From Candidatus Binatia bacterium (GTDB lineage: Bacteria; Desulfobacterota; Binatia; HRBIN30), in contig JAOAHD010000007.1 of assembly GCA_026415395.1 (NCBI GenBank), positions 715,304-779,303 of the forward strand: DNA of 64,000 nucleotides. The letters run 5' to 3'. Below the pieces are notes generated by a model. It ran no database searches and had not been told where the DNA came from. It saw only the letters and a list, made by a program, of their open reading frames with translations. Position 1 is the first letter of the stretch, and every line of letters begins with the position of its first letter. This document shows, in pieces, positions 1 through 20,374 of this stretch. Made by a program: the position numbers and the translations under genes.

Positions 1-826
1 TCGCCCTAACGAGGGCTATGCTGAGGTCACGCTCGCGCTTTATCGCCCCGACGGTACAGCGCTGTTTCAGTATCAACGCCCCGCGATTACCGGCCACGAG
101 GCTTTGGACGCGGGCGGGATGCGGTTCGAGGTGCTGGAGCCAGCCCGGCATTTGCGAGTGAGTTACGCGGGGGCGGCGGTGTATTTGCAGCGGCCGTTGG
201 ATCTCGAAAATCCTCGGCAGGCCTTTACTTCCAATCCCTGGCGGCAAGTCGAATTGCAGCTCGACTATTACGGGTTGAGCCCAATGTATGGTGGAGAGAG
301 TCCGAGCGACGCGAAGAATACCGAGCTTGTGTTCGCGCGCGGCCACACCGAGCAGCACGTTCGTGCCGTGGGGGTGGTTACCGTCGATGGCGAAACGGTA
401 CCGATCAACGCCCTTGGCTTGCGCGATCACTCTTGGGGGCCACGCTCGTGGCAATCGCCGGCGTACTATCGGTGGCTGACGGCGGAGTTCGACGAGTCCT
501 TCGGTTTCATGGGCTCTTTCATTCATTTACAAAGCGGCGCGGACTTACAGTCGGGCTTCTTGTTCCGCAACGGCCGCAATGAGCTCGTCGACCGTGTCGA
601 CATCGAGACCGAGAGCGATCCGGCCACGGGTTACCACCGCAAGCTGCGCGCGCGATTACACACCGGCCGCGGTGCGGTGGAGGTCACGGGTGAGGTGATC
701 ACCATGCTCCCCCTGCGTAACCGGCGTGACGGGAAGGTCACCCGCATCGCCGAAGGGTTAACCCGTTGGCAGGTTGGCAACCAAATCGGGTACGGGTGGT
801 CGGAGTACTTGGATCAGGTCGCCTAA
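1..826 (+). CDS. hypothetical protein, 5'-truncated by window edge
   Basis: The reading frame is open from position 2 with no stop, and the TTG at 104 is internal. It ends at TAA 824-826. I recognise no family from the sequence (..RDHSWGPRSWQSPAYYRWLTAEF..). Confidence 0.5.
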   Translation, partial: RPNEGYAEVTLALYRPDGTALFQYQRPAITGHEALDAGGMRFEVLEPARHLRVSYAGAAVYLQRPLDLENPRQAFTSNPWRQVELQLDYYGLSPMYGGESPSDAKNTELVFARGHTEQHVRAVGVVTVDGETVPINALGLRDHSWGPRSWQSPAYYRWLTAEFDESFGFMGSFIHLQSGADLQSGFLFRNGRNELVDRVDIETESDPATGYHRKLRARLHTGRGAVEVTGEVITMLPLRNRRDGKVTRIAEGLTRWQVGNQIGYGWSEYLDQVA

Positions 827-1055
827 CGCCCGAGTACGTTGACGGCGAGCCCCTCCCCTGTGTGCCGTGGGGAGATCTCGGAACAGCGGGGCCGCATTTG
901 CCTCCGTTGCGTAGCCATTGGAGTCGCCGCGTTCGGAAATCGGGGTGGGAACGCGGGGTGTGCGTATGTTGATTGTTCCGGGCCGTGCTGCCATGGCTTG
1001 ACTCGTTTGGCTGCAAAGGGATTCCTGCGCTGAACTCTTTTTCACGGATACGTTT

Positions 1056-1075
1056 CGAAGCAATGAATTGCTTCG
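1056..1075. promoter_or_regulatory. perfect 9-bp inverted repeat CGAAGCAAT-GA-ATTGCTTCG (candidate operator or RNA hairpin) upstream of ssrA
   Basis: This is an exact palindrome in an intergenic region that is AT-richer than its surroundings. It lies between the upstream gene stop (826) and ssrA (1260). Confidence 0.3.
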
Positions 1076-1259
1076 CGAGGCCGTAGGACCGACGGTGCAG
1101 GACGTTGCTGGCAATGAGAATCCTCTCCCCACCCGCCGCTAGGTTGTGGGACTCAGAAGCCCGCGCGCGCTGGGGATTGCGGATTGGGATGCGAGGGATA
1201 TAGTGAAAAAGTGTTTCCTGCTGGCAATTCGGAAGTGCCGGTAGATTGTTCTTTGACAT

Positions 1260-1605
1260 GGGGGCGATTTGGGTTCGACGGGGGTCAGGAAGGTTGCGGT
1301 TGCGTGCTCGGGATCCTGGGTACCGGTCAACAACCCCAGGGCTGCTTAAACGCAGACGAACCACTTGCTTTGGCTGCCTAAGCGCAGTCACGTCTCACCA
1401 AGCCCGCGCCCGTAGGGCTGGCTGAGGCGACAGAATTCGGGCTAAGCGGCAGCGGTTGCTCATCCGCTGCCGACGAAAACCCCAGAGCTGGCCGACAGGG
1501 ATCCTGCCCGTGGGAGCCCTGCCGGCGAGAGCAAAACACGCGGCTACGCACGTAGACCCCGCCGCCGACCGCCTCCGGACGGGGGTTCGATTCCCCCCGC
1601 CTCCA
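1260..1605 (+). ncRNA. ssrA: tmRNA (transfer-messenger RNA, SsrA)
   Basis: The 5' GGGGGCG (1260-1266) pairs with the 3' CGCCTCC+A (1598-1605), including the G3:U wobble that marks tRNA-Ala identity. A T-arm GGTTCGATTCC lies at 1584-1594. The internal tag reading frame is AAC GCA GAC GAA CCA CTT GCT TTG GCT GCC TAA (1349-1381) = NADEPLALAA-stop. The 3' CCA is not encoded. Confidence 0.9.
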
Positions 1606-2285
1606 TTTCCGGTCGAAAAACCGGTTAGCGAGCGGCAGGCGAGCCGCCCGCAACAAGGCCCGGGGAGCTAGCTGGGACGCGGTTTTTTGTGTGCTGTTCA
1701 GCGAAGGTCTTGCCTCGGTAGGAGTGCAGTCGTCCTGCCCGCAGCACGACAATCATCCTGCATCCTGCTGCGGGCTACGGAATCGCCTCCTTCGGCTGCG
1801 CTCCGTCCCCGTGCTGTCACGCGCTTGACGCGCCCGGACGCGTGATGCTGCGAGCAATGCGTGCCCGCGCTCTTCGGGCGGACAAGACCACGTTCGTACG
1901 CCCCGGTTCAATACTCTCGGGCCGGCCCGATCTTGCGCCGGACAATTTCGCCGAGCGGATTCAGGCCGAGTCCCCGACGGTGAGGCCCTCGCGCCACGCG
2001 CACCCGAGGTCGTGCTGGGCAGGTCCCATGGGCCAAGGGCCTGCTCGAGTAAAGGCGACCAATGTGGTGGAACCTCGGGGACGCTAATCCGCTGAAATTT
2101 GCGAGCGAGGGCTTTGAGAACGAACAGCAGCAGATGCGCGTCACGGCATGTTTCCTCGAGCGCATCACGCTCGAGGTAGAATCCCGGCAGCAGTTTGTCA
2201 GCGCTGGCGAGGTGTGCCGCACGGTGGAGTTGCCTCGGCCGGCCATTGACATTGGTTGCGGCGCAGCCGTAGGCAGGTAGGGCCG

Positions 2286-3101
2286 ATGATTGTTGACGCA
2301 TGGATCCAGCACCCGAGCCCCGAGTTCCTACGGCACCCGCGCTTTGCCTCGCTGCGGCGCTGGGTGGGTGCCACTGAGCTGCCGGACGAAATCCCGCTGG
2401 AATTTACGCTCGCAGCGCTCGATGCCGCTGGTGTGGACCGTGCGCTGATCACTGCATGGTGGGGGCCGGAAGGGCCGGCCATCAGCAACGATGAAGTTGC
2501 CGAGCTCGTGCGCCGTGCGCCCGGGCGTCTCGTCGGCATTGCGTCCGTGGACTTGCGCTCCCCGATGGCTGCGGTGCGCGAGTTGCGTCGTTGCGTGCGC
2601 GAGCTGGGGATGCGCGGCCTTCGCGTTCTGCCCTGGCTGTGGGAACGCCCGCCGAATCACCGCTGGTACTACCCCCTTTATGTGGAGTGCATTGAGCTGG
2701 GCATCCCCTTTTGCCTTCAGGTGGGGCACACCGGGCCCTTGGGACCATCAGACCCTGGACGGCCCATTCCATATCTGGACGAGGTGGCGCTGGATTTTCC
2801 TGAGCTTGTCATCGTCGCCGGCCATATTGGCTACCCCTGGACGGAGGAGATGATCGCGCTCGCGACCAAGTACCCGAATGTTTTTATCGATACTTCGGCT
2901 TACAAACCAAAACGGTATCCACCGGCATTGCGCGAGTTTTTGCGCGGGCACGGCCGCTCCAAGGTTCTCTTTGGGAGCAACTACCCAATGATTTTCCCTG
3001 CCGACTGCCTCACCGAGATCGATTCTCTGGAACTCGACGAGCAAGCGCGCCGACTGTTTCTGGGCGAAAACGCTTGTCGCGTGTTTCGCCTCGCTGAGTG
3101 A
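2286..3101 (+). CDS. amidohydrolase-2 family (ACMSD/LigI-like metal-dependent hydrolase)
   Basis: The N-terminus reads MIVDAWIQHP..., with ..VLPWLW.. and the C-terminal ..AGHIGYPW..DTSAY..FGSNYP.. typical of PF04909. An RBS AGGTAGGG precedes the ATG at 2286; the alternative TTG at 2256 is less likely. Confidence 0.7.
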   Translation: MIVDAWIQHPSPEFLRHPRFASLRRWVGATELPDEIPLEFTLAALDAAGVDRALITAWWGPEGPAISNDEVAELVRRAPGRLVGIASVDLRSPMAAVRELRRCVRELGMRGLRVLPWLWERPPNHRWYYPLYVECIELGIPFCLQVGHTGPLGPSDPGRPIPYLDEVALDFPELVIVAGHIGYPWTEEMIALATKYPNVFIDTSAYKPKRYPPALREFLRGHGRSKVLFGSNYPMIFPADCLTEIDSLELDEQARRLFLGENACRVFRLAE

Positions 3102-3326
3102 ATCCACCGCCTGAAGCTGGGCCTTAGATTGCCAACAAATGGGGCGGCGAGTCATGGAACCCACGGTGCACACGCCTGTCACCGACGGCGCGTTGCCGTA
3201 CCAGGTGAGCTCAGTCAAATGGAGGCGAGGAGTGTCAGGCGAGTTCGTCGGGCCCGGGCATGGTGCGCCGGCGATCGCGGTGCGAAGCCAAGAGCTGCGC
3301 TGGACGACGGCCCGACTGCCCTCCCC

Positions 3327-4412
3327 TTACCGTCCCTGTTGTTTGCGGCTCGGTAACACGGCGGTCGGAAGGCTGCCGTGCTTGGCGATCAGTCGGCCAG
3401 AGAAGCTTAAAGTCGTGCGTGCGTGCTCCCAGGCAGTGCGCAGCGGTTTGCGAAACAACAGATTGAATTCCAGCATCGGGCCAACCACACACTGCGTGCA
3501 CGGCGTATCTCGGTCCCAGCTCTGCGTCCACTCCTCCGTGAGTAAATCGATGCCTTTGGTCTTGCCCTTGGTGTACGCGCAAGGGTAAGCGACACCCTGC
3601 GGGTCGATGTACAGGTAGCCGCGTCCTGCCGCGCAACGGACGTGAGCCTGATAGACTGCCGAGACTGCGAAGTCGGGCCAGGCACTCAATGCCTCCAGGT
3701 ACGGGGTCGAACTTGCGATCGGGCGGCCGCGGCGTTTTTCGTCGGCCAGCAGGCGCCAAAATTGTTGCCACTCCGCCGGTGACACCGATCCTGTCGGCTT
3801 GCCGCGCACCAGCTCGGTATCGACACACTGCGGCTGAAAATGCACTCGAAAACCGGCATCCTCGGCAATTTGGAGCAGCGGCTCGACCGCCGTGAGATTC
3901 CGTTCCGTTACGACGCAAATCGCCACCACCGGCACGCCAGCGCGAACTAAGGTGCGGGCAGCGTTGACGACACGGCCGGCGTTCGGGTCGCCCCGTGTTG
4001 CTGCGTGCACCGCCGGTGGGCCATCCAAACTCGTATACACGAGGTTGGCATCGTACAGGCAACTTCCTCGCCGCTCGAATAGCGATAGGTTCGAATTCAC
4101 GCTGATCCAGAAGCCGACTTCACGGGCCGTACGCACGATTTGTGGAAAATCGGCTCTGAGCAAGGGCTCGCCTCCCGCCAACCCTAGGCGTCGGATGCCC
4201 ATGCGGCGTAACCGCTGAAAGAGCAGGCGAATTTGCCCGAGATCGAGCTCGGTTGGATCGAGAAATGGGGAGTTACAGTAACTGCAGCGCAAGTTGCAGC
4301 GATTCGTGACCGCGAAGGTGGCAGAGAACGGGCGGGGGGAACCGTCGATGTAAAACGCCAACAGGCTCCGTGCGTAGGCAGAGGCGAGCGCAACTGTGTT
4401 AAACACCGACAT
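3327..4412 (-). CDS. radical SAM enzyme with C-terminal SPASM/twitch-like Cys cluster
   Basis: It carries the CxxxCxxC motif CNLRCSYC followed by GGEPLL. The C-terminal cysteines CAAGRGYLYIDPQGVAYPC...CTQC resemble a SPASM/twitch auxiliary cluster. Its start overlaps the upstream UbiA stop by 14 bp, which suggests an operon. Confidence 0.75.
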   Translation of the reverse strand: MSVFNTVALASAYARSLLAFYIDGSPRPFSATFAVTNRCNLRCSYCNSPFLDPTELDLGQIRLLFQRLRRMGIRRLGLAGGEPLLRADFPQIVRTAREVGFWISVNSNLSLFERRGSCLYDANLVYTSLDGPPAVHAATRGDPNAGRVVNAARTLVRAGVPVVAICVVTERNLTAVEPLLQIAEDAGFRVHFQPQCVDTELVRGKPTGSVSPAEWQQFWRLLADEKRRGRPIASSTPYLEALSAWPDFAVSAVYQAHVRCAAGRGYLYIDPQGVAYPCAYTKGKTKGIDLLTEEWTQSWDRDTPCTQCVVGPMLEFNLLFRKPLRTAWEHARTTLSFSGRLIAKHGSLPTAVLPSRKQQGR

Positions 4413-5268
4413 CCAAACGACTCAAAATGACGAGCCACAACCCACCAAAGTAAACTTTGGTGAGTAGCCACGCTGCGTTGCGGCTGGCGACGAGATAATA
4501 GGGGGCCACCGGTGTGAAGGCCGACAATGCCCCTCCCCACGGCAACTGGAAGTAGCCGGAGAGCACGACTGCCAAAAACCCACAGAGTACGAGGAGTGTG
4601 ATCGGTACAGCCGTCGCGGTGCGGGCGGCAATCGTGCCGATGCCGTTACGCGCGTCCACGCTGCGATCGACGAGGGTTTGATACACGTGGCACACCGCAG
4701 TCATAATGCCGACGAGCACAAGGATCTCGCTGCCTGTGCCGATCATGGCGGTGTAGGTGGCGCCCCAAATGCCGCACCAAATCACGTCGACGACGGGTAC
4801 GCCCTTGAGGACCAGGGAGTACGACACGTTGACAGCGAACAGCGCGACCACCGCCAGCAGCAGTGACGTGCCTCCTGCCGTGAGAGCGAGCAAGGCACAG
4901 AGCAAGTGTAACCCGACCAGTGCGGCCGCAGTGGCCGTACGCTGCGCTAGATACAACTCGACGAGCCAACGCTGCTTGCGGGGATTGTGGATGTCGGCTT
5001 TCGCGTCCCAGAAGTCGTTGAAGCCGTAAAGCGCAGCCAGGGTCAGTACCGAAAGGGCTGCCAACTGGGCCTTCGCCGCCAAGGTTCCACTGGCCACTGC
5101 CAGGAGGGATAAGTTGATCGCGAGCAATGCCCCCTCGAAGCGTTTGATCCGCTCCGCGAGCGAACCGAGGATTGCGAACGCGGCACGAGCTGCCCCAAGA
5201 AGTTCCGCATCGCTGGCGCCTTCGCGCTGGGCGCCACTTTTCGTCGCCGACTCGAGCACCGAGGCCAT
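4399..5268 (-). CDS. UbiA-family aromatic/isoprenoid prenyltransferase (polytopic membrane)
   Basis: The first Asp-rich motif is NDFWDAKAD (NDxxDxxxD) and the second is DRSVDARNGIGT. The protein has multiple hydrophobic helices. Confidence 0.7.
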   Translation of the reverse strand: MASVLESATKSGAQREGASDAELLGAARAAFAILGSLAERIKRFEGALLAINLSLLAVASGTLAAKAQLAALSVLTLAALYGFNDFWDAKADIHNPRKQRWLVELYLAQRTATAAALVGLHLLCALLALTAGGTSLLLAVVALFAVNVSYSLVLKGVPVVDVIWCGIWGATYTAMIGTGSEILVLVGIMTAVCHVYQTLVDRSVDARNGIGTIAARTATAVPITLLVLCGFLAVVLSGYFQLPWGGALSAFTPVAPYYLVASRNAAWLLTKVYFGGLWLVILSRLDVGV

Positions 5269-5376
5269 CGGACAGCCATGCTATGCCTTGACAAGATAAG
5301 TAATCAAGAGTCGCCTTGACCTTTTGCCACTCCCCATGCAGGGTGCGCATGTGCCGAGCCATGCAGTGTCCCGAGG

Positions 5377-6285
5377 ATGCACTGCGGCCGAAATGCCGCG
5401 AAAGCGGGGATGGCCTTGCTGCAACCAGCCATGCTTGCTCATGAAGGGACAACATTGACAGTTCAGTTACAACCGCCAGATACGGTGGGCATGCCCCGGC
5501 ATACAGAGGTACCGCGGGTCGACGCGGTCAGTGCGGAGGACTTCCGGCGACTTTACCTACGGCAACGCAAGCCGGTGGTTTTGCGCGGGCTCACGGTAGA
5601 CTGGTCCCCGCCAGCGTTCTGGACTTTCGATTCCCTGGCGGAGCGTTACGGCGATGCCCTCGTGGTGGCGGCGTTGCTTTCGGGCGGCACCCTCAAGGAG
5701 GATCCCCGATCCGGTGTCATCTTCGAACGTATCCTCTTGCGGGATTTCATGAGCAACGTGGCAACCCGCCGGGAGTCACACTACGTGATGGCGCCCGTGT
5801 GGAATTTTCCCGTCGAGCTTAAGCGCCACTACCGGATCCCGGTCTATTGCCAGAGTGCGCCGTACTTGCGAGCAAAACTGTGGCTCGGACGCGCGCATAC
5901 GGTGACACCGCTGCATTGGGACGTGCCGCACAATCTGATCGTGCAATTAGTGGGTCGCAAACGCTGGCTGCTTTTTCCTCGGTCAGCTTGGTTGGCGCTG
6001 TATCCTCGCGGGTTGCTCTCCGGAATGGCGAACTTTTCTCGGGTTGATCCAGAACAGCCCGATCTTCGCCGTTTCCCTCGGTTTCGTTCGGTGCAAGCTT
6101 TCGAGGCCATCGTAGAGCCCGGCGAAACCTTGTTTATTCCCCGCGGGTGGTGGCATCACACGCGGCTGTTGAACGATGCCGTCTCGCTCAACTTTTGGTG
6201 GGGCGGTTACGGTGTGGCGCTTGCCGCACGTGCTTCGCTGCTGTTCAAACGGCTACGCCGGATCCGCCAAAATGAGTGGGCGTAA
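5377..6285 (+). CDS. JmjC/cupin-8 domain protein (putative 2-oxoglutarate/Fe(II) oxygenase)
   Basis: It shows cupin-like features ..HWDVPHNLIVQLVGRKRWLLFP.. and ..LFIPRGWWHHT.. of the HxD/E...H type. The start is ambiguous (TTG 5377, or ATGs at 5410, 5431 and 5491). It is divergent from the UbiA operon. Confidence 0.6.
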   Translation: MHCGRNAAKAGMALLQPAMLAHEGTTLTVQLQPPDTVGMPRHTEVPRVDAVSAEDFRRLYLRQRKPVVLRGLTVDWSPPAFWTFDSLAERYGDALVVAALLSGGTLKEDPRSGVIFERILLRDFMSNVATRRESHYVMAPVWNFPVELKRHYRIPVYCQSAPYLRAKLWLGRAHTVTPLHWDVPHNLIVQLVGRKRWLLFPRSAWLALYPRGLLSGMANFSRVDPEQPDLRRFPRFRSVQAFEAIVEPGETLFIPRGWWHHTRLLNDAVSLNFWWGGYGVALAARASLLFKRLRRIRQNEWA

Positions 6286-6291
6286 ACTCTT

Positions 6292-8409
6292 TTAGCCGCA
6301 CGCTACGAGCCGCCAGCGCCGCGCATGGACACGCGGCTCCCAAGGTGCCTCGCTTAGCCGCGCTGCCCACACGTGACCGAGTCCAGCCCGATCCCAAACT
6401 TGGAACAACACCACCCCCGGATAAAACCTGCACAGGGACTTGCGCACATTGAAATCTTCCTCCAGGCCTGGGCTCCAAAACACCAAGTCCTTGCCATCGG
6501 CAACGAGTTGATCCACGGGCAGATGCGGCTGTTCGAGGCGCAAGTAGCCGACCGGCAAGGCCCAGCCGTACGCCGTCATCGGGCCCACGTACAACCAACG
6601 GACATCGTGGTGGAAGCCCGCGGGGTAGTCGATCACCACCGCGCGCGGTGCATCCCTGGGAGCCAAGCTTTCGAATGCAATCCCCGTAGAAGAGGCGCAC
6701 AACCACCGCTGCGGAATTTCATGACTGAGCAGCGCGCCGGCGGTGCAGCAGCCGAGCGAGGTAAGGGCCGCGACGAGGGGGCGCGTGGCATCAGGGATGT
6801 GCGCCAGTATTTGCCCCGCGCCGAGAGCTGCAATCAACGCGACCGGAACCCCCAAGCTTACAGCGTGCACCATATCGACCAAATCTACGGGCGACACGAA
6901 TGCGGGGCTCAACGCTGCGAGGAACAAGATCAACAGTTCGCGGGCTGTGGCACTGCGTTTGAAGTTGTGCACGCAGGCCAGCAAGCCAAGGGCAAAGAGG
7001 GTGGCTGTGAAGGGGTCGAAGATTGCATCGGTCCACAAACGGATGTGTAACCGGGGATGAGCAAAGGGCGCGAGCAGCGCGCCGAGAACAATATCGAGGG
7101 GGCGACGGATATCGACGCTGCGACTTCGCTCCATTAGCAGCACCGAGCCTTGACCGAGCAGTGCCCGATCGAGCGAGGCCGCAATCCCGTGGAACGAGAA
7201 GTGATGTGTACCTTCCCGCAGGGAAAATACCTCAGGTATTGCAGGCAACAGCGCAGCAGAAAAAATCAGTGCACCGGCAACCCAAGTGAGCCGATGCGTT
7301 CGCCATGTGGAGGGCCAGCGCGCGAGTACGGCAAGGCCGGCGACGCCAACAATGGGAACAACGCTTGGAAAGGTAAGGCCAAAGGCTGCGAGGGGACCAG
7401 TGCACACTAGGCTAGCCCGCGATCCGTTGAGACGAAATCGCCATACGGCAAGAAGCAGGGCCACCGTAACCACGGGGGCGAAAACAAACGGCGCAGGTAG
7501 AACTGCAAGATAATGAGTGAACGGCGAAAATAGAAATCCTGTGGTCCCAATCAGGGCCGGCAGTGCGCCTCCGATCCTCGTCGCGAGCAAAGCGAGGCCA
7601 GCGGCAGCTACCGCAAGCCAACTCATCTGTGCCAGCTGCATGCTCGCGAGGCTCGGCTCCACAAGCCCGAGTTGCCACAGGGGAACCCCCTGAAAGAGAA
7701 ACGGTAGTGCACCGAGATTGGGAAGCTCCGCATCGTATCGCTCTCCGAACAGTTTGCCGTTGCGGGCCGCGAACTGCAAAGCATCGACGAAAGCGCGCCA
7801 TTGGTCGACCGCGCGCGTCGCCTCTAGGCTGCCGAGTTCCACGCCGACAAAGAACCCGACCCAAGCGACGGTGACGAGGACGACCGGAAGTTGAGGCCGC
7901 AGGAGAGCGACTGCGGTTGGCGCAGACTGTTGTGGGCGTGGCGACGGCGACCAAAGACAGAGCGCCGGCACAAAGAGGCCGGCCAGGAACGCGAGCTGAC
8001 CGGGTAGCCCCGCGTGCTTGACCCAAGGGGCAGCGACGAACAAGGCAACCGCGAGACCTAGTGCCACGCGTTCTTGCCAAGCCGCCACGCTCGGGGTTGG
8101 GTGGAACTCGGCCGCGTCTTCAAAAGGGCGAAGATAGAAGCGGGCAAACAAGCAGGTGCAGAGCAGTAGTGCACTGAGCCGGGTTGCGATCCACCACGTC
8201 GGCACGCCTGGGAACAGCCTGCCGAGTACGTGCGCCTGCGGATTCCACTCGGTGAACTGTGCTGGAGGAGGCCACAAGAGGGGCAAAGCATAATAAAGGA
8301 ACAACAGGCCGATTATGAGAGGAACAGCCAATGGGAACCGCTTGCCGGATTGTCTCGTGCGCGATGGCTGCTTGATGGATCGCCCTGAGGGCACCTTGGC
8401 TCGTCGCAC
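6292..8409 (-). CDS. large polytopic membrane protein (>12 TM; possible GT-C-like glycosyltransferase, function unknown)
   Basis: The 705-aa protein is highly hydrophobic with many predicted helices and has a C-terminal soluble domain. I cannot assign a family. It lies downstream of Usp/TerC on the same strand. Confidence 0.45.
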   Translation of the reverse strand: MRRAKVPSGRSIKQPSRTRQSGKRFPLAVPLIIGLLFLYYALPLLWPPPAQFTEWNPQAHVLGRLFPGVPTWWIATRLSALLLCTCLFARFYLRPFEDAAEFHPTPSVAAWQERVALGLAVALFVAAPWVKHAGLPGQLAFLAGLFVPALCLWSPSPRPQQSAPTAVALLRPQLPVVLVTVAWVGFFVGVELGSLEATRAVDQWRAFVDALQFAARNGKLFGERYDAELPNLGALPFLFQGVPLWQLGLVEPSLASMQLAQMSWLAVAAAGLALLATRIGGALPALIGTTGFLFSPFTHYLAVLPAPFVFAPVVTVALLLAVWRFRLNGSRASLVCTGPLAAFGLTFPSVVPIVGVAGLAVLARWPSTWRTHRLTWVAGALIFSAALLPAIPEVFSLREGTHHFSFHGIAASLDRALLGQGSVLLMERSRSVDIRRPLDIVLGALLAPFAHPRLHIRLWTDAIFDPFTATLFALGLLACVHNFKRSATARELLILFLAALSPAFVSPVDLVDMVHAVSLGVPVALIAALGAGQILAHIPDATRPLVAALTSLGCCTAGALLSHEIPQRWLCASSTGIAFESLAPRDAPRAVVIDYPAGFHHDVRWLYVGPMTAYGWALPVGYLRLEQPHLPVDQLVADGKDLVFWSPGLEEDFNVRKSLCRFYPGVVLFQVWDRAGLGHVWAARLSEAPWEPRVHARRWRLVACG

Positions 8410-8414
8410 CCAGG

Positions 8415-9332
8415 TCAGTTCCGCGGGCGGGTAATTTCCACCGAGCAGCGTGCTCGAATTGCCATCGCGGCAGAAACGCTGCCGAGCAAAAAGCGTTGGA
8501 GAAAGTTCAGGCCGCGCGCTCCGACGAACATACAGTCTGCTCCGATGCGCTCCTGCTCTGCAATTAGCTCCCGTTTGGGATCTCCCTCAATGAGGTGGGA
8601 TGAGGCCGTGATGTTGGCCTCCCGGAGGCGTTGCTGCACGCTTTGCATCATGCGTTCGAAAGGGGCGCGGGCATCTCGATCGCGCGGGTCGAGCCACTGC
8701 CGCAGGGGAGAGTCCTCGGATGCGAGATCGCTCATCGTCCGCGGCTCGATCACCGCCACGACGAGCACCGTGGTGCCCAACGGCCAATGCCGCTGGGCGA
8801 TCGCAGCGAGGGCGGCTTCCGCGTACGGCGAGCCATCGTACGCCAGGAGAAGGCGGAGCTCGTTTGCTACTGGCTGTGGGCGAGGCCGGCCAATGCGCAC
8901 GGAGCAGTGCGCTTCGGTAGCCACCTTCAGGGAAACGCTGCCCAAGAACAGCCGGCTGGCAGCGCCCTTGCCGTGGGAGCCCACCACCAGCAAATCCGCA
9001 TTCCATTCCTCTGCCGCTTTGATCAGGCCCCATCCGGGTGAGTCGGCCCGCGCCTCCCACTGAACCTCCCAGCTCGGGAACTTTGCCCGCACGAGCCTCG
9101 CCCCGTCTTCTGCAAGCGCCGCAGCTTCGGCCAGTGCTTGCTTGGCGAGGGCTCGACCTTTGGAAACCGGATCGGGCAGCGGAATCTCGTTTTTCTCCGG
9201 CTCCGGTGGGAGCCAGACGTCGGCGACCGTGATGACTTTGGCAACCGATCCTGCCGGCAACCCGGCATAGGCAAGATCGTCCACCGCGTGGCGCGCACTG
9301 TCTGAACCGTCGTACCCAATGACAATTCTCAT
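8415..9332 (-). CDS. tandem universal stress protein (UspA x2)
   Basis: It contains two UspA modules (MRIVIGYDGS...VVGSHG..G..GSVS...; second ..LLLAYDGS...FVGARG..LGSVS..). Start at ATG 9332 is preferred over 9443. Confidence 0.75.
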   Translation of the reverse strand: MRIVIGYDGSDSARHAVDDLAYAGLPAGSVAKVITVADVWLPPEPEKNEIPLPDPVSKGRALAKQALAEAAALAEDGARLVRAKFPSWEVQWEARADSPGWGLIKAAEEWNADLLVVGSHGKGAASRLFLGSVSLKVATEAHCSVRIGRPRPQPVANELRLLLAYDGSPYAEAALAAIAQRHWPLGTTVLVVAVIEPRTMSDLASEDSPLRQWLDPRDRDARAPFERMMQSVQQRLREANITASSHLIEGDPKRELIAEQERIGADCMFVGARGLNFLQRFLLGSVSAAMAIRARCSVEITRPRN

Positions 9333-9342
9333 CTTGCCGCCC

Positions 9343-10356
9343 TTATGTGAGTGACCCCGTTTTTGCCGACGGAGTGGCTTCCGGAGCCCCGACGCGTTCC
9401 CCGCCAGGCTTTGTGCCGGCGACCCGCTCGACCTCGGCTCCACCCTCGCGTTTGGGAAACAGCAGCGATGCCAGGACGGCTACCGACAAGACTCCCGCGA
9501 CGACGGCCAGTGACCAACCGATAGGGATCTTGTAAAACTCCGACACGAGCATCTTTGTTCCCACAAAGGTGAGAACCACGGCAAGCCCGATTTGTAGGAA
9601 ACGAAACATGTCCATCACTCCGGCCAGCAGAAAGTACAGCGCCCTGAGCCCGAGAATCGCAAAGACGTTCGAGGTGTACACAATGAAAGGGTCTTTAGTG
9701 ACGGCAAAAATGGCTGGAATCGAGTCGAGAGCGAATACCAAATCCGTGGTTTCTACGACGATGAGGACGAGGAGCAAAGGCGTTGCCCACAGCCGCCTCT
9801 GGTCTCGGACAAAAAACGACTGCCCTCGGTAGTCCTCAGTCACGGGAATCACGCGGCGCACGAGCTTAACGACCGGGTTGCGCGCGGGCTCGACCTCTTT
9901 GTCCCCAGAAAACAAGAGGCGAATGCCCGTAACCACCAAGAAGCCGCCGAAGACATAGATCATCCAATGAAAGCGGTTCATCAACGCCACACCCGTCGCA
10001 ATGAAGATGCCCCGCATCACCAAGGCACCGAGAATTCCCCAGTACAGTACCCGGTGCTGATATATGGCGGGGACTGCAAAGTAACTGAAAATCATGAGAA
10101 AGACGAAGAGATTGTCGACGCTCAAGGACTTTTCGATGAGGTATCCGGTTAGAAACTCCAGTGCTCGCTCATATCCCCAGGCCCAATAAACGAGGCCATT
10201 GAAAGCCAATGCCAACACCACCCAAACCACGCTCCAGATGGCTGCTTCACGGAGGCTCACTGCGTGTGCCCGGCGGTGGAAGACACCAAGGTCAAGCGCC
10301 AACATCGCGAGCACGAAACAGTTGAAGCCGACCCAGAGAATCCAATGGTGTTCCAT
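9343..10356 (-). CDS. TerC family integral membrane protein
   Basis: It carries the TerC signature ..SLSVDNLFVFLMIF.. and ..ALDSIPAIFAVT.. with multiple TM helices. Confidence 0.8.
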   Translation of the reverse strand: MEHHWILWVGFNCFVLAMLALDLGVFHRRAHAVSLREAAIWSVVWVVLALAFNGLVYWAWGYERALEFLTGYLIEKSLSVDNLFVFLMIFSYFAVPAIYQHRVLYWGILGALVMRGIFIATGVALMNRFHWMIYVFGGFLVVTGIRLLFSGDKEVEPARNPVVKLVRRVIPVTEDYRGQSFFVRDQRRLWATPLLLVLIVVETTDLVFALDSIPAIFAVTKDPFIVYTSNVFAILGLRALYFLLAGVMDMFRFLQIGLAVVLTFVGTKMLVSEFYKIPIGWSLAVVAGVLSVAVLASLLFPKREGGAEVERVAGTKPGGERVGAPEATPSAKTGSLT

Positions 10357-14625: not shown

Positions 14626-16545
14626 CTAGCTCAGACCGAGGGCGGTGGCTGCGCGGTAGGTGAGGAAACTGGCGGCCCACGCCAGCGCGAGCATGTAGCT
14701 GAAGGCAAAGGCCGGCCAGCGCCAACTGCCTGTTTCCCGAGCCATGACGACCATCGTGGAGGTACACTGCAGGGCGAAGACAAAGAACACCATGAGGCTC
14801 AGTGCCGTAGGTAAACTAAAGTGTCGGCGCCCGGTTACTGGATCCACATCGCGGCGCAGTGCCTCGCGGAGTCCGTCATAGTCATCAGGATTGCCGACGG
14901 CGTGGATCTGCGCCAAGGTCGACACAATCACCTCACGCGCGGCTAAACTCGCCACGAGCCCCACGCCGATTTTCCAGTCGAAGCCAAGCGGCTGGATCAT
15001 GGGTTCAATGGCATGGCCGATACGGCCTGCCACGCTCTCTTCCAAATTCGCACGCGCTTGCTCAGCGGTAGACGCGCCAGGGATTTGCTGCGCCCGCGGA
15101 AAGGAGAGCAGTGCCCACATCACGATGCTGACCGCCAAGATGATGGTTCCTGCTCGCTTGAGAAATGCCGATGTGCTGCCCCAAACCTGCCGGAGCAATA
15201 AACGAAGGGTGGGCCACCGGTAGGGGGGCAATTCCATGTAAAATACCGAGGGCGTGCCTCGTAAGAGCGTCGAACTCAGCAGAGCTGCCGACGCCAGCGC
15301 AGTGCACGCGCCTAAAAGATAGAGGCCGAACATCACCAGCCCCTGGAGCCCAATCGGACCCCAGATCGCGCGCGCGGGCACGAATGCTGCGATCAACAAA
15401 GTGTAAACTGGCAACCTTGCGGAACAGGTCATGAAGGGAGCCACCAAGATGGTAGCCAGCCGCTCTCGTGGGGATGCAATCGTGCGGGTAGCCATGATTC
15501 CGGGCACCGCACAAGCAAAACATGAAAGTAGGGGCACGAAGCTCCGACCTTGCAGTCCGACCCAACCCATCACCCGGTCGACGACAAAGGCCGCGCGCGC
15601 CATGTAACCAAGGTCATTGAGCAAATGGATAAACGTGAACAGGATCACGATTTGCGGGAGAAAGACCAGCACCGACCCGACGCCAGTAACTACGCCGCCA
15701 GCCCAGAGCTCTGTGAGCCAACCCGGTGGCAGTACATCACGGCACAGTGCAGCGAGCTCCGTAAACAGTGCGTCGATGGCATCCATGGCCGGTGCCGCCC
15801 ACGTGAAGATGCTTTGGAAGAAAATCAGCAGCACCACGGCAAGCGTAAGAAGCCCGTACACCGGATGGAGCAACCAACGATCGATCCGGTCCGTGCGGCG
15901 GTCCGGTGCGAGGCGATCGGCGCCGACAGCCTTGCACACCGCGTCTACCCAGGCGAAGCGGCGAACTGGGTCTTCGTCGAGCGGAGGGCGTACTTTTGGC
16001 CGTGGCCATTTCCAGGGCTCGCGCACCAGCCGGATCACTTGATCGATCCCCACTCCTCGGTGGCCGACCACGCCGACAACCGGGATGCCCAGTTGACGCG
16101 ATAAGCCAGCGATGTCGAGCCGGCCGCCGCGAGCGCGAACCTCGTCGATCATGGTCAACACCAGGACCATCGGACGCCGATGTGCAAGAAGCTGCCGCAC
16201 CAATCCCAAACCGCGCCGCAGTGTGGTCGCATCGGCCACTGCAACCACGCCGTCCAGCTCGGGCTCTCCTGCCAGCTTGCCGTCGAGCACCTTTTCCACA
16301 ATGCGTTCGTCTGGCGACTCACCGCGCAGGGCGTACGTGCCCGGCAAATCCAAAATGATCACCTGGCCATTGCTGCCGCGCAGTGTGCCCTCGCGACGCT
16401 CCACGGTTACTCCAGCGTAGTTGCCGACCCGCGCACTCGAGCCAGTGAGTGCATTGAACAGCGTGGTTTTGCCCGCGTTCGGAGAACCCACGAGCGCGAC
16501 TCGGACCGGGCGTAAGGGTTGGGCAGCAGGTGCTGTGGCCGTCAT
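14626..16545 (-). CDS. feoB: ferrous iron transport protein B
   Basis: It has an N-terminal G-domain ([20 protein letters not shown]..) followed by a polytopic permease, and is about 639 aa. Confidence 0.9.
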
Positions 16546-16874
16546 GGTGCGGGTGGATCGTCCTCCAAAATCACACGGAACCCCCAGAGTTGTCGGCGGC
16601 GGAAGCAGAGCCTGGTTCCGCGGATTTCGATTTCCACTGGGTCGCCCAGCGGTGCGCGGCGCACGATTTTGAGCCGTGTGCCGGGCACGAAGCCGAGGTC
16701 GAGCAAACGATGCGAAACGTTTCGTGCCAAGTTGTCACTCAAACGAGCCCAACGGCCGACGGGTAAGTCGTCCAGAGGGATGCTGCCTTCCTCGCGACAA
16801 TGCTTTTCGGACACCTTGGCTGACCGTAGTTGCGATCTCTTGCCCGCGCGGCCGCTTCGCTGCGCGGTTGCCAC
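16542..16874 (-). CDS. feoA: FeoA domain protein
   Basis: A FeoA SH3-like segment ..[13 protein letters not shown]...[10 protein letters not shown].. is present. The stop overlaps the feoB start. The true start is probably internal, since FeoA is usually about 75-85 aa. Confidence 0.6.
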
Positions 16875-16894
16875 GGAACCGTAGCGTCAAGAGT

Positions 16895-18505
16895 TCAGCC
16901 TAGCCACCGGTGGGCGTCGATCATCTTTTCTTGAATCGGTACCCCGAGTGGGCACTTGCCAGCGCAAGGCGCAGCGCACGAAACGCAAAGCGAGGCATTC
17001 CGCTCGAGTTGAGCGTAAAGGCGACGTCCCTCGTACTCCCAGTGGTAGTCTTTGGCATACATGCGGTAACGCAAGATGTCGTGAATCGGCAGTTCGTGCT
17101 CGCAGGAATCCAGGCAAACCCCGCAGTGCGGCTGGCAATAATCGCCCGAAACGAGTTGGTCATACCGGCGCAGCAAGGCCACATCTTCGGGCCGCAACTG
17201 TGTGCCCGAGGCGTACAAGTATTCGTCGACCTGCCGCTGCTCGTAAATGGAAATCACCAAACAAGAGACGTTCGGGTTCGACAACACCCAGCGAAAGGCT
17301 GCTTGAGCGTACGAGTCAGCCTCGCGGCGAAACTCGGCAAGGTTGGTGTGCTTAGCCCCCTTGAGTGTCTTCATGGCCACCACCCCGACGTCTCGCGATT
17401 TGGCTTTCGCGAGGATGTGATCGAAGTTCGGCCACATGCCAAAGTGATAGGCCAACATGAGCACGTCGAAACGGCCCGAGTCGATCGCGGCGTTGGCAAT
17501 CTCCTCCAAGTTCGGCGTATGCGTGCTGACTCCCAAAAACCGGACCTTGCCTTGTTCCTTGAGGCGATCGAACGCTTCGTGGATGTTAGGTGCAAACAGC
17601 CGGTCGAGGCGGTCGCACGAATGGATATGAATGAGGTCGACGTAGTCGGTTTGCAGACGCCGCAAACTTCCCTCGACTGCCTCGATAATTTTGGGAACCG
17701 GCGTATCGTTCGGTAGGTGGCCGTCAGCCACGCAAAACTTGGTGGCCACGAACAGCTTGTCTCGATGCCCTTTCATGGCCTCGCCAAGTACACGCTCGGA
17801 GTTGGTGTCGGCGTAGTCGGGTGCTGTGTCGAAGTAGTTGATTCCGCGCTCGATCGCATACCGCGCCACGTTGGCGTTGTTGATGCGCGATGAGCCGAGA
17901 GAAATATCGGACACCATGGCGCCGGTGCGTCCGAGGCGGCGATAACTGCGCACGCGGGCTTCGCTCCACTCCGGTCGCGCCTGCGGGGCAATGGTTTCGA
18001 CCTTGGCGCTGAAGAAGTCACGCCCAACGGCAATCCAGCCGCGATTGCGGGCGACAGCCACCCCGACCCCGCCGATGATTGCGGCCATCTCCGTTCCTGC
18101 GGCTGCGACCACGCGGAGCGCTTGACGCCGGCCGAGCTGGTGCGCTTCGGCAGTGTCGAGGGAGCGAGCGATTTCGATCCAGCGTTCTCTTCCGCCCAAG
18201 CCGCAGGGCAGACACACAGGCACCCGCCAAGCGAAAAACTGCAAGGCCATTGCCGCAGAGAAGCACACCAACGGGATGGCGAGATGCCACCAGGGCAGCA
18301 AACTTCGCTGCACGCCTTCGACGAGATCGTGCAACAGATTCCCTCCCAGCCACCAAGCGAGGAAGAGCCCGAGCGCGTACAGAGCCCAAACATAGGGCCG
18401 CTTGATTTGTACGAAGCGGAGCTGAAGCTCGCCGCCGCAAGCACTGCACTGTTGCTGGTCCATAGCCGCCTCCTGTGTTCTTGGCAGTGTACGGCGGGGG
18501 CGCAC
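16895..18505 (-). CDS. aldo/keto reductase with C-terminal Fe-S Cys cluster and N-terminal zinc-ribbon/2-TM extension
   Basis: The AKR core has ..YRRLGRTGAMVSDISLGS.. and ..YVDLIHIHS.. . The C-terminus is Cys-rich (CQPHCGVCLDSC ... CVSCAAPCAGKCP), typical of Fe-S-containing AKRs. The first ~170 aa contain CSACGG...CLPCGLGG flanking two hydrophobic helices. Confidence 0.65.
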   Translation of the reverse strand: MRPRRTLPRTQEAAMDQQQCSACGGELQLRFVQIKRPYVWALYALGLFLAWWLGGNLLHDLVEGVQRSLLPWWHLAIPLVCFSAAMALQFFAWRVPVCLPCGLGGRERWIEIARSLDTAEAHQLGRRQALRVVAAAGTEMAAIIGGVGVAVARNRGWIAVGRDFFSAKVETIAPQARPEWSEARVRSYRRLGRTGAMVSDISLGSSRINNANVARYAIERGINYFDTAPDYADTNSERVLGEAMKGHRDKLFVATKFCVADGHLPNDTPVPKIIEAVEGSLRRLQTDYVDLIHIHSCDRLDRLFAPNIHEAFDRLKEQGKVRFLGVSTHTPNLEEIANAAIDSGRFDVLMLAYHFGMWPNFDHILAKAKSRDVGVVAMKTLKGAKHTNLAEFRREADSYAQAAFRWVLSNPNVSCLVISIYEQRQVDEYLYASGTQLRPEDVALLRRYDQLVSGDYCQPHCGVCLDSCEHELPIHDILRYRMYAKDYHWEYEGRRLYAQLERNASLCVSCAAPCAGKCPLGVPIQEKMIDAHRWLG

Positions 18506-18583
18506 GCAAGTCTAGCCAGAGGGGTTGGCGCACTGCGGCACGGTGGACACGTGCGTTGGCGACCGTTCGATTGCTCGCGAGAG

Positions 18584-19573
18584 CTAGCGACGACTCGCTG
18601 ACCACCTTGTGGCCGCCGTGTCAAGCCAACGCTGCAGCCGTTCGGCCCAAGGCAAGGCGCTCATCAACGCTCGTTTGAGTTCAGGGAGTGCCTGCCGAGC
18701 GGTCAAACGTCCGGCGTGGATCGCTTCACGGCTCAAGTGAAAGTCGAACAGGCCGAGACGAACAGGAACGTGAATCAGGAAGTCCGGTGGGTCATCACGC
18801 AGGCGGGCAGCGGCAATCCGCGCCTGCACGATAGTGCTGGCGCGCGAGAGGATTTCAACGAGGCCAAGCTCGGTGGCGGGGGTGCCGTTGGTTTCGGGTA
18901 GCAACCGGCTGGTCGAAAGCGGCGGTTTCTTCCAGCGCCGGCGCAAGCGCTCGCTCCATTGCTCGGTTAGGCTCGAGCGTGTCACCCGGCGTGGCAAAAC
19001 CGCTGGGTGAACTTGCAGCACACTCACGGCAATCACAAAGTCCGCCCCCAGAGCGCGGGCCACGTCTGCGGGGATGGGGTTCACGAGGCCACCATCCACC
19101 AGAATCCGCGGCCCCAAGCGCTGCGGGGTAAACAAGCCTGGAATGGCAATGCTGGCCCGCACAGCCTCCAGGACCGAACCAGATTGCAACACGACCTCCT
19201 CGCCCGTGTCGAGGTCCGTCGCCACTGCAGCAAACGCGATCGGCAATGCTTCGATCGTCGTGCCCAGGTGCGGGCGAACGAGCTCTAATGAGCGCCGCCC
19301 TTCGAGCAATCCGGCTTGCGGCCAAATGGGGTCGAACAAACGCAACACACGGGCGCGGGTCAGTTCGCACATGGTATTGCGGAATGCCTCCAGTTGCCCA
19401 TTGGCAAATGCCGCCCCGACCATTGCTCCGGCACTGGTACCAGCCACACAGCGAATCGGTAGCCCGGCGGCGACGAGCTCTTCGAGCACACCCACGTGAG
19501 CCATTCCGGCCGCGCCGCCACCACTGAGTGCGACGCCGATTTTCACAGAAGAAGTCGAGGTAAGGGCGGTCAT
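18584..19573 (-). CDS. patatin-like phospholipase
   Basis: It has the GxGxxG oxyanion motif GVALSGGGAAG and the GxSxG motif GTSAG. Confidence 0.8.
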   Translation of the reverse strand: MTALTSTSSVKIGVALSGGGAAGMAHVGVLEELVAAGLPIRCVAGTSAGAMVGAAFANGQLEAFRNTMCELTRARVLRLFDPIWPQAGLLEGRRSLELVRPHLGTTIEALPIAFAAVATDLDTGEEVVLQSGSVLEAVRASIAIPGLFTPQRLGPRILVDGGLVNPIPADVARALGADFVIAVSVLQVHPAVLPRRVTRSSLTEQWSERLRRRWKKPPLSTSRLLPETNGTPATELGLVEILSRASTIVQARIAAARLRDDPPDFLIHVPVRLGLFDFHLSREAIHAGRLTARQALPELKRALMSALPWAERLQRWLDTAATRWSASRR

Positions 19574-19606
19574 CGGCGCTCTCTATGCCAAAAGCACCCC
19601 GCGATG

Positions 19607-20335: not shown

Positions 20336-20374
20336 GGAGTCTCGCTCGTTAAAACGTAGTAGGGCGAAAACGCC

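Follow-up and report, generated by a model that had tools for sequence, protein, structure and literature searches.

What would a membrane transferase of the UbiA superfamily, a radical S-adenosylmethionine (rSAM) enzyme whose gene begins inside that of the transferase, and a divergently transcribed JmjC-type oxygenase be doing together? The question is raised by positions 3327–6285 of a 64,000-nucleotide stretch of contig JAOAHD010000007.1 from Candidatus Binatia bacterium (the window), which the original prediction had singled out as a compact three-gene module. The trio stands, but not its proposed extent: the adjacent 705-amino-acid (aa) open reading frame (ORF) at 6292–8409, on the reverse strand, also belongs. 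The four genes at 3327–8409, encoding the UbiA-type transferase (UbiA), the rSAM enzyme, the oxygenase (Cupin_8) and a protein with a predicted GT-C fold, form a conserved uncharacterised set, which is found in its minimal form in the window and in loci L080, L086 and L007. The preferred, tentative reading is that the module makes and tailors an unusual polyprenyl-linked donor, rather than a quinone or a peptide, and that the GT-C enzyme would transfer it to the cell envelope.

The coupling of the UbiA and rSAM genes is the most constant feature of the locus. The rSAM ATG (4412–4410) sits within the 3′ end of the UbiA gene, whose TAA occupies 4401–4399, giving an overlap of 14 nt (ATGTCGGTGTTTAA). 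The identical overlap (UbiA end equal to rSAM start + 13) recurs in L011, L014, L015 and L080–L087, and in two further places that were returned without their DNA, which suggests translational coupling. The co-translation put forward in the original prediction thus holds, as a coupled functional pair whose overlap is kept in many loci. A synteny scan that took one genome for each GTDB species gave 79 loci, 17 of which contain full-length rSAM orthologues (46–62% identity). These 17 belong to Binatia together with metagenome-assembled genomes (MAGs) labelled ‘Deltaproteobacteria’ or ‘Polyangiaceae’, to Acidobacteriota (two) and to Bacteroidota (six; Chitinophagales, Bacteroidia). A UbiA homologue lies upstream on the same strand, ending within approximately 30 nt of the rSAM start, in 16 of them; L012 is counted here although a GDSL gene separates UbiA and rSAM, and in the seventeenth locus, L010, the contig stops just upstream of the rSAM gene and UbiA is not visible. 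Because UbiA is kept immediately upstream of rSAM at this frequency and in three phyla, the arrangement is far beyond chance. Synteny of the pair, which had been named as the point on which the module depends, is conserved across Binatia, Acidobacteriota and Bacteroidota.

Short overlaps are common in compact GC-rich genomes, and the genes could on that account be chance neighbours with no shared function and an incidental overlap. Order and overlap nevertheless repeat in three phyla while the genes flanking the pair change completely between lineages, and a fusion protein, described below, joins Cupin_8 and UbiA. The synteny data effectively refute coincidence, which is scarcely credible as an explanation.

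Distant relatives of the rSAM enzyme (25–30% identity; Candidate Phyla Radiation (CPR), Firestonebacteria, Planctomycetia, Myxococcota and others) have no adjoining UbiA. ORF calling was unreliable at loci with 70–74% GC owing to antisense frames, and tblastn and pre-called genes were used instead. Gene calls for the pair are error-prone in public MAGs: a 382-aa UbiA/rSAM-start ‘fusion’ on a 55.9-kb ENA contig (P0209) and a UbiA gene that is interrupted in a long-read MAG (L005, 7236–7987) are both apparent sequencing frameshifts.

The fourth gene gives the clearest indication of the process in which the pair takes part. The 705-aa protein has no Pfam or NCBIfam match, and its family comprises just 16 members, all labelled hypothetical. 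Its AlphaFold model (mean predicted local distance difference test score (pLDDT) 89.5, predicted template modelling score 0.91) consists of approximately 13 transmembrane (TM) helices followed by a C-terminal periplasmic α/β domain. The top matches in both of two fold searches with this model were exclusively GT-C glycosyltransferases, including all of the top 15 in Foldseek; the best structural matches were ALG12, protein O-mannosyltransferases (PMTs) and ArnT, and EmbA/B, AftB, AftD and AftA were also matched. An invariant aspartate, D202, flanked by the invariant tryptophans W183 and W204, is located in the first external loop, after helix 166–190 of the GT-C core. Sequence comparison placed the family less firmly: the PMT_2/ArnT-like model PF13231 did not match the window protein and gave 17.7 bits against 26.1 for the L007 orthologue, and hhalign of the family with PMT_2-type neighbours reached 56% probability over 54 columns. 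Judged by its predicted structure, the 705-aa protein is a GT-C-fold glycosyltransferase of a previously unrecognised family. GT-C enzymes need lipid-linked donors, and ALG12, PMTs and ArnT use polyprenyl-phosphate-monosaccharide donors; it is for these reasons that a lipid-linked donor is proposed as the product of the module.

GT-C-like partners accompany the UbiA–rSAM pair almost everywhere. Orthologues of the 705-aa protein are found near it in L007 (directly downstream of rSAM), L003 and L080 (beside Cupin_8) and L086 (approximately 4 kb upstream of the pair), PMT_2 proteins in L013, L083, L085 and the P0094 place, a YfhO-like protein in the P0091 place, and polytopic proteins with C-terminal tetratricopeptide repeats (TPRs) in L001, L003, L004, L006, L014 and L015. 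Larger clusters contain GT2 enzymes, with ArnC (undecaprenyl-phosphate Ara4FN transferase) as their best NCBIfam match (141 and 90 bits), as well as an ABC2/Wzt exporter and a DegT sugar aminotransferase; a flippase-like PF03706/TIGR00374 protein occurs in the Bacteroidota clusters only. The other recurring partners are several B12-binding rSAM enzymes, on which the HpnJ and HpnR models score far below cut-off, GDSL esterases, sulfatases, and oxygenases of the Asp/Asn-hydroxylase-like (Asp_Arg_Hydrox), PhyH and FA_hydroxylase types. The GT-C, ArnC-like GT2, B12-rSAM, GDSL and flippase-like partners place the pair in periplasmic lipid-linked envelope glycosylation.

The Bacteroidota clusters in L011, L012, L014 and L015 comprise approximately 15 genes around the pair, with multiple copies each of Asp/Asn-β-hydroxylase-like, GDSL, B12-rSAM and PhyH genes, a protein with an FGE-sulfatase domain and a multihaem cytochrome c fragment. 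They also encode three families of 460–580-aa polytopic proteins without a Pfam match (clusters 7, 8 and 10), for which hhalign against PMT_2-type neighbours, with shallow alignments, was not significant; cluster 7 has a suggestive ‘KPPLY’ sequence and an N-terminal Asp/Glu motif, reminiscent of ArnT/PMT enzymes. Genes of isoprenoid synthesis adjoin the pair elsewhere: HMG-CoA reductase directly in L085 (7675–8931) and the P0094 place (7719–8867), and a thiolase with an HMG-CoA synthase (HMGCS)-like/DUF35 fusion in L086 (11963–14552). Their position abutting the pair is consistent with a demand for isoprenoids. In L086, lytB/ispH lies approximately 8 kb from the pair, and together with the HMGCS-like genes it indicates that these Binatia may carry both isoprenoid routes.

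The UbiA protein matches PF01040 with 52.7 bits (cut-off 34.2), and 4–9 TM segments are predicted from hydropathy in its orthologues. Residues R40, E45-G46, Y81, N84-D85-xx-D88-xxx-D92, K98, N147, Y150-S151, K155, D161, H194, Q197 and D201-xxx-D205 are invariant, and these include both Asp-rich motifs (NDxxDxxxD and DxxxD), in alignments of 16 and 18 sequences. A profile search of 1.84 billion representatives retrieved 88 proteins at E ≤ 1e-30 and 1085 at E ≤ 1e-3; by this measure the subfamily is small, divergent, well separated and patchily distributed. Just two solved structures match its profile: Rv3806c (8j8j, E 2e-6), over profile positions 66–163, corresponding to the N-terminal bundle alone, and UBIAD1 (E 0.004), for which the match takes in the second Asp motif. 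In Rv3806c the N-terminal helical bundle binds phosphoribosyl pyrophosphate (PRPP) through R22, K28, Y70, N73, D77, K87, R90, Q135, Y138 and K143, in a positively charged pocket with one Mg and K208 (PMC10994848). Invariant counterparts of these PRPP/diphosphate ligands are Y81 (Y70 in Rv3806c), N84 (N73), D88 (D77), K98 (K87), Y150 (Y138) and K155 (K143). N147, equivalent to Q135, was rejected as a marker of phosphoribosyltransferases (PRTases): E. coli MenA also has Asn at this position. The NCBIfam decaprenyl-phosphoribose (DPPR) synthase equivalogs NF008977 and NF008978 gave 27.3 and 22.9 bits (cut-offs 234 and 207). Overall, the putative active site looks like a two-metal diphosphate site.

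A quinone or other redox cofactor is another candidate product, with UbiA prenylating an aromatic head group that is made or modified by the rSAM enzyme and hydroxylated by Cupin_8, as MqnP works with MqnE and MqnC. UBIAD1, MenA and E. coli UbiA align over the second motif, the JGI automatic annotation of the UbiA homologues is ‘4-hydroxybenzoate polyprenyltransferase’, and ring hydroxylation by the oxygenase would suit quinone chemistry. However, UbiA, MenA, MqnP, MqnE and MqnC models are not among the NCBIfam matches listed for either protein (for the rSAM enzyme, the best 25 of 57); chorismate-, futalosine- and UbiD/UbiX/UbiE-type genes recur in none of the approximately 23 neighbourhoods, one weak UbiE-like methyltransferase match being present in the P0091 place; the tiny, patchy UbiA subfamily is unlike one with a core respiratory function; and the constant partners are GT-C enzymes. 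A quinone product is thus highly improbable. A lipid-linked small molecule is the most reasonable kind of substrate, in line with the original prediction; the quinone that it had also offered is disfavoured, since no aromatic-precursor or quinone genes recur in any neighbourhood examined and GT-Cs recur instead.

The divergent gene encodes a PF13621 protein (E 8e-43) in which the Fe ligands H180, D182 and H260, and K195, the Lys that binds 2-oxoglutarate (2OG), are invariant in 11 sequences; it is a predicted, active-looking Fe/2OG oxygenase with a conserved hydrophobic C-terminal helix. Its nearest relatives in the PDB are JMJD5 (3e-31), FIH (2e-23) and TYW5. A Cupin_8 gene lies within approximately 10 kb of the UbiA–rSAM pair in approximately 17 of 23 loci. 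In addition, Cupin_8 and UbiA occur as natural fusions with Cupin_8 at the N terminus (P0259, 531 aa, six contigs; variant P0310, five contigs), in which all motifs are retained and the UbiA part belongs to the window UbiA subfamily. The fusions therefore tie the oxygenase to the substrate or product of UbiA at the membrane, and their domain composition argues for a shared membrane-bound substrate. The oxygenase accordingly does belong with the UbiA–rSAM pair, as first supposed, both by its proximity and by its fusion to UbiA in P0259.

The region between the two divergent genes had been described as a shared promoter of 110 bp. The divergent orientation of the JmjC gene is confirmed, but the length is not: homologues and PDB matches begin at residues 39–44 of the longest ORF, so that the start is probably M39 at 5491 (or 5410), and the gap of 108 nt given by the longest ORF widens to approximately 140–220 nt. 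A start at M39 would give a Cupin_8 protein of 264 aa. The region has an AT-richer stretch at 5281–5330, and a consensus scan found no σ70-like promoter in it. In the Acidobacteriota locus L009 (4871–7205), the two genes directly before UbiA–rSAM encode one protein of 546 aa, with a Rieske [2Fe-2S] domain at its C terminus, and one of 220 aa. The same two genes precede UbiA–rSAM in L008, and their products may replace Cupin_8 as the oxygenase.

The rSAM enzyme matches PF04055 (E 6.9e-18, 65.8 bits) and has an invariant CX3CX2C motif (C39/C43/C46). Its start at 4412 is correct, as the N terminus is co-linear with those of 13 homologues. A hydrophobic or amphipathic helix (residues 3–21) precedes the radical SAM core, which begins at residue 27; C196 is invariant and C166 nearly so, and the last 26 aa form a non-conserved tail. 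The C-terminal region contains just four conserved Cys residues, arranged as C260-x12-G273-x4-C278 and C305-x2-C308. In the AlphaFold2 model (pLDDT 80.5, from a shallow alignment of sequences with ≥56% identity), strands 252–259, 266–269 and 274–276 form a β-hairpin flanked by C260 and C278. The isolated domain reaches 16.4 bits with the SPASM model PF13186 (cut-off 21.5), over model positions 1–22 of 67, and the seven-Cys SPASM motif (CX9-15GX4C ... CX2CX5CX3C ... C), which provides for two auxiliary clusters, is not present. The enzyme was therefore correctly recognised as a radical SAM protein, but not as one of SPASM type: only the first hairpin is there, below cut-off, and by its Cys pattern the domain is Twitch-like (half a SPASM), predicted to be able to ligate one auxiliary cluster. 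Such a four-Cys pattern (Cys...Cys...CxxC) is likened to the four ligands of BtrN.

No known family accommodates the enzyme. All 57 NCBIfam matches are weak, the best being TIGR03961 with 75 bits (cut-off 306). Foldseek neighbours are SkfB, SuiB, anSME, MoaA, DesII, PqqE and viperin; SkfB and MoaA rank among the top matches, DesII, BlsE, AbmM and MoaA were matched by structure or by sequence, and Tes (GDGT-MAS) is among the sequence matches to the core. The enzyme is not a known cofactor or peptide maturase, with no NCBIfam model near its cut-off, no RiPP recognition element (RRE; RiPP, ribosomally synthesized and post-translationally modified peptide) and no precursor peptide.

Among more distant homologues, the CPR locus L018 (Daviesbacteria, 362–9892) has three consecutive pairs of a B12-rSAM enzyme (approximately 500 aa) and a Twitch rSAM enzyme (approximately 344 aa) beside a PMT_2 GT-C, the Twitch enzymes being 25–29% identical to the window rSAM. 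Similar two-rSAM pairs are present in L019 and L021, which makes this a repeated cassette, and in L023 a distant rSAM gene lies beside a GT2–methyltransferase fusion. The wider rSAM clade thus appears in glycan-type contexts.

The structural neighbours of the rSAM enzyme also bear on another explanation, in which a protein or peptide is the substrate, as in RiPP or surface-protein maturation: Cupin_8 would hydroxylate a residue, the rSAM enzyme would modify the chain, UbiA would prenylate it or supply a lipid, and TPR-containing GT-Cs would glycosylate it in the periplasm. The protein hydroxylases JMJD5 and FIH are the nearest relatives of Cupin_8, the RiPP maturases SkfB and SuiB are among the best rSAM matches, as is anSME, which modifies proteins, and many partner GT-Cs carry TPR domains, as do the protein O-mannosyltransferases TMTC1–4. 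L086 moreover has a gene for a secreted protein between Cupin_8 and UbiA. Against this, the core begins at residue 27, too close to the N terminus for an RRE or leader-binding domain to fit; no precursor ORF is found among the small ORFs of the window, as the original prediction had observed; and tblastx of intergenic DNA across five Bacteroidota loci gave no cross-locus matches, and so no conserved small ORF. Two 73-aa ORFs in L086 were rejected as precursors, being antisense to a larger, frameshifted β-helix gene. Neither a peptidase nor an exporter of PCAT type is a recurrent neighbour of the pair, the Cupin_8–UbiA fusion places the oxygenase on a membrane enzyme, and we know of no UbiA-family enzyme that prenylates peptides. 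Modification of a protein or peptide is, on balance, improbable. The L086 gene (KatS3mg077 Binatia, 7761–9899, forward strand) encodes a parallel-β-helix-like protein that terminates in a sorting tail resembling IPTL-CTERM (IPAVREWGVMLLMVVLL...RRR); its coding sequence runs over several frames, owing to frameshifts or misassembly. The module may act on this protein, or the two may have nothing to do with each other.

Under the proposal of a polyprenyl-linked donor for envelope decoration, UbiA, whose active site would lie on the cytoplasmic side of the membrane, would attach a polyprenyl lipid to a head group that is activated as a diphosphate or bears a phosphate, yielding a polyprenyl-linked precursor. 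The Twitch rSAM enzyme would then tailor the head group by hydrogen-atom abstraction (for example, epimerisation, oxidation, dehydration or C–C bond formation), a role equivalent to that of DprE1/E2, ORF13 or ArnD in known pathways, and the membrane-associated Cupin_8 oxygenase would hydroxylate it. After flipping, the GT-C enzyme, or a PMT_2- or TPR-type enzyme elsewhere, would transfer the group to a periplasmic or envelope glycan or protein.

Several observations weigh against this scheme. For UbiA, R90 of Rv3806c is not conserved and the TM1 R22/K28 motif cannot be aligned, the HMMER match to Rv3806c stops short of the second motif, and that motif (H194xxQxxxD201xxxD205) aligns with UBIAD1, E. 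coli UbiA and MenA. With TM1 unrecognisable, R90 unconserved and the second motif intact, membership in the PRTase family is not established; indeed, because the second Asp-rich motif is invariant, unlike the one-Mg site of Rv3806c, UbiA may be a true prenyltransferase that uses prenyl diphosphate, which fits a lipid product at least as well. In the enzymes most closely related to Cupin_8, the target of hydroxylation is a protein or tRNA rather than a sugar or lipid, and six loci lack a Cupin_8 gene within 8 kb. Peptide maturases are as numerous as sugar enzymes among the structural neighbours of the rSAM protein, none of the components is recognised as part of any characterised pathway, and the window is without a phosphatase or flippase gene.

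The same features of UbiA favour the main alternative, in which the module makes a specialised isoprenoid lipid. A two-Mg UbiA would O- or C-prenylate a lipid backbone or head group, and the rSAM enzyme would act on the prenyl chain by cyclisation, by Tes/GrsA-like cross-linking or by HpnH-like addition of a 5′-deoxyadenosyl radical. Cupin_8 and the Asp/Asn-hydroxylase-like, PhyH and FA_hydroxylase proteins would hydroxylate, the B12-rSAM enzymes would methylate, and GT2 and GT-C enzymes would decorate the finished lipid. UbiA has kept both Asp-rich motifs in a form that aligns with classical prenyltransferases, and in three loci the pair is directly adjoined by HMG-CoA reductase or thiolase/HMGCS-like genes. 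The larger clusters contain tailoring genes of lipid type (Asp_Arg_Hydrox of the LpxO/OlsC family, PhyH, FA_hydroxylase, GDSL and B12-rSAM), their combination of GT2, B12-rSAM and LPG_synthase_TM recalls hpnI/hpnJ/hpnL, and the match of the rSAM core to Tes points in the same direction. The minimal unit (window, L080, L086 and L007), however, has no lipid-backbone, cyclase or GGGP-synthase-like genes, and the lipid-linked donor of the constant GT-C partner would be left unexplained in it. The B12-rSAM enzymes fall below the HpnJ/HpnR cut-offs, the 25 best of the 57 NCBIfam matches of the rSAM enzyme do not include HpnH, and we know of no report of isoprenoid ether lipids from these phyla. We regard an isoprenoid lipid as rather unlikely, though less so than the other alternatives.

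A bolder form of the donor proposal is that a two-metal UbiA prenyltransferase, the Twitch rSAM enzyme and the JmjC protein work together, perhaps in a membrane complex, to give lipid-linked donors or isoprenoid glycolipids of a novel class, which the new GT-C family would install on the envelope of Binatia, Acidobacteriota and Chitinophagales. Polyprenyl diphosphate might, for example, be coupled directly to a phosphorylated or hydroxylated head group, or the rSAM enzyme might form a C–C bond by radical chemistry, as HpnH adenosylates its isoprenoid. This form is doubtful; if true, it would represent the first known radical SAM step on a polyprenyl-linked glycosyl donor.

The features of the module and its surroundings are collected in Table 1. 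The order TerC–Usp–GT-C–Cupin_8–UbiA–rSAM is shared by the window and L080/L081 and is absent from L086 and L007, which makes it likely that the Usp and TerC genes adjoin the module in particular lineages only. As listed, the Usp and TerC ORFs share 101 nt, so that Usp probably begins downstream of 9443. The DNA upstream of TerC gave no riboswitch match reaching the Rfam gathering score; the sole Rfam match in the window is a full-length tmRNA gene approximately 1.7 kb from the module, and the ORFs listed across it are spurious. The DUF7064/DUF7065 protein, at the window edge, is not linked to the module. Genes at 10.6–21.8 kb (amidase, thioesterase, thiolase, FeoAB, BioD/BioA and others) were considered as parts of the module and rejected as unrelated housekeeping genes; those at 14626–21790, with FeoA/FeoB iron transport, an aldo-keto reductase fusion, a patatin-like phospholipase and BioD/BioA-like proteins, have an ordinary housekeeping look. 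No phosphatase (HAD, PAP2) or flippase (MATE, SMR) gene was found in the window, nor a dedicated flippase of GtrA/SMR, MATE or ArnEF type at 1–22 kb.

Table 1. Positions of the module genes and neighbouring features in the window.
Feature	Position	Strand	Size	Family or remark
DUF7064/DUF7065 protein	104–826	+		weak Rv3169-family match
tmRNA gene	1260–1608	+		RF00023, 149 bits
Amidohydrolase_2 ORF	2256–3101	+		
Radical SAM enzyme (rSAM)	3327–4412	-	361 aa	PF04055
UbiA-superfamily membrane transferase	4399–5268	-	289 aa	PF01040
UbiA/rSAM gene overlap	4399–4412	-	14 nt	ATGTCGGTGTTTAA
Divergent intergenic region, UbiA start to probable Cupin_8 start	5269–5490			promoters presumed
Cupin_8/JmjC Fe(II)/2-oxoglutarate oxygenase	5377–6285	+	302 aa (longest ORF)	PF13621
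GT-C-fold glycosyltransferase	6292–8409	-	705 aa	fold from predicted structure
Tandem-Usp protein	8415–9443	-		follows GT-C gene
TerC/Alx-family membrane protein	9343–10356	-		TIGR03718, 444 bits

That the module is a real, conserved and uncharacterised system is well supported. Its domains, intact catalytic motifs, GT-C fold, gene coupling, cross-phylum synteny and Cupin_8–UbiA fusion are documented here, whereas we infer the lipid, the head group, the chemistry and sequence of the steps, and the acceptor. Lipid-linked donors of GT-C enzymes underlie the mycobacterial arabinan (the target of ethambutol and benzothiazinones), polymyxin resistance (ArnT) and O-antigen diversity. The donor-tailoring enzymes of all characterised cases known to us depend on flavin or NAD or are hydrolytic. 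If the module does supply and tailor a polyprenyl-linked donor, radical SAM and 2OG-oxygenase chemistry would be added to donor remodelling, along with a new UbiA subfamily and a new GT-C family, and a gene set of abundant uncultured soil and hot-spring lineages (Binatia, Acidobacteriota and Chitinophagales) would gain a testable function. The automatic labels, ‘4-hydroxybenzoate polyprenyltransferase’ for UbiA and BchE-like for the B12-rSAM enzymes, could mislead reconstructions of Binatia towards quinone or bacteriochlorophyll synthesis. A full-text search found no paper that links UbiA, radical SAM and GT-C or describes a UbiA–rSAM pair in Binatia.

Among known systems, the futalosine genes for MqnP, MqnE and MqnC likewise unite a UbiA-family enzyme and rSAM enzymes in one pathway, whereas the module shows no Mqn relationship among its listed NCBIfam matches, has an rSAM enzyme of another clade and a GT-C partner, and lacks a quinone context. 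The bacteriohopanepolyol genes hpnH (rSAM), hpnI (GT2), hpnJ (B12-rSAM) and hpnL (LPG_synthase_TM) resemble the larger clusters in gathering an rSAM enzyme, a GT2, a B12-rSAM enzyme and a flippase-like protein around an isoprenoid lipid, but the module has no squalene-hopene cyclase, and UbiA and GT-C are not part of hpn clusters. With the sugar-modifying rSAM enzymes of the Twitch/SPASM clade (BtrN, DesII, BlsE, AprD4 and AbmM) and MoaA, the window enzyme shares the radical SAM core and a short auxiliary-cluster domain, BtrN and AprD4 being sugar-modifying enzymes that resemble it; the identity is however 13–22%, there is no family-level match, and SkfB, SuiB and anSME score equally well or better.

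The closest parallels are with lipid-linked glycosylation. The Arn (ArnC/ArnD/ArnEF/ArnT) and Gtr (GtrA/GtrB/Gtr*) systems follow the logic proposed for the module, with a sugar carried on undecaprenyl phosphate that is tailored there before a flippase and a GT-C act, but in them a GT2 makes the lipid-linked sugar, whereas the module has a constant UbiA-type partner and no GT2 in its minimal set. The mycobacterial decaprenyl-phospho-arabinose pathway (Rv3806c, Rv3807c, DprE1/DprE2 and Emb/Aft) is alike in its synthesis of a lipid-linked sugar by a UbiA fold, its redox remodelling on the lipid and its use of GT-Cs; the module differs in lacking the one-Mg, positively charged PRPP site, in having an rSAM/2OG pair in place of the flavin/NADH pair and in occurring in other phyla. 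Three-component periplasmic pentofuranose glycosylation combines a UbiA-like polyprenyl-phosphoribose synthase, a flippase and a GT-C (GT136), with auxiliary epimerases acting on the lipid-linked sugar; its description makes no mention of radical enzymes (Kelly et al., PNAS 2024, PMC11127046). In those systems, as in the module, a UbiA-superfamily enzyme is linked genetically to a GT-C and extra cytoplasmic enzymes would remodel the lipid-linked group before export, and among solved structures the N-terminal half of the module UbiA is closest to the PRTase branch. By contrast, the module UbiA keeps the second Asp motif and has no recognisable TM1 Arg/Lys motif, no HAD/PAP2 phosphatase or MATE/SMR flippase is encoded in the window, tailoring would fall to a Twitch rSAM and a JmjC enzyme instead of a short-chain dehydrogenase/reductase (SDR) epimerase or DprE1/E2, and the GT-C is from a different, unannotated family. 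The module is thus best classed as a variant of lipid-linked periplasmic glycosylation in which the UbiA subfamily is new, the Twitch rSAM clade unassigned and the GT-C family unannotated.

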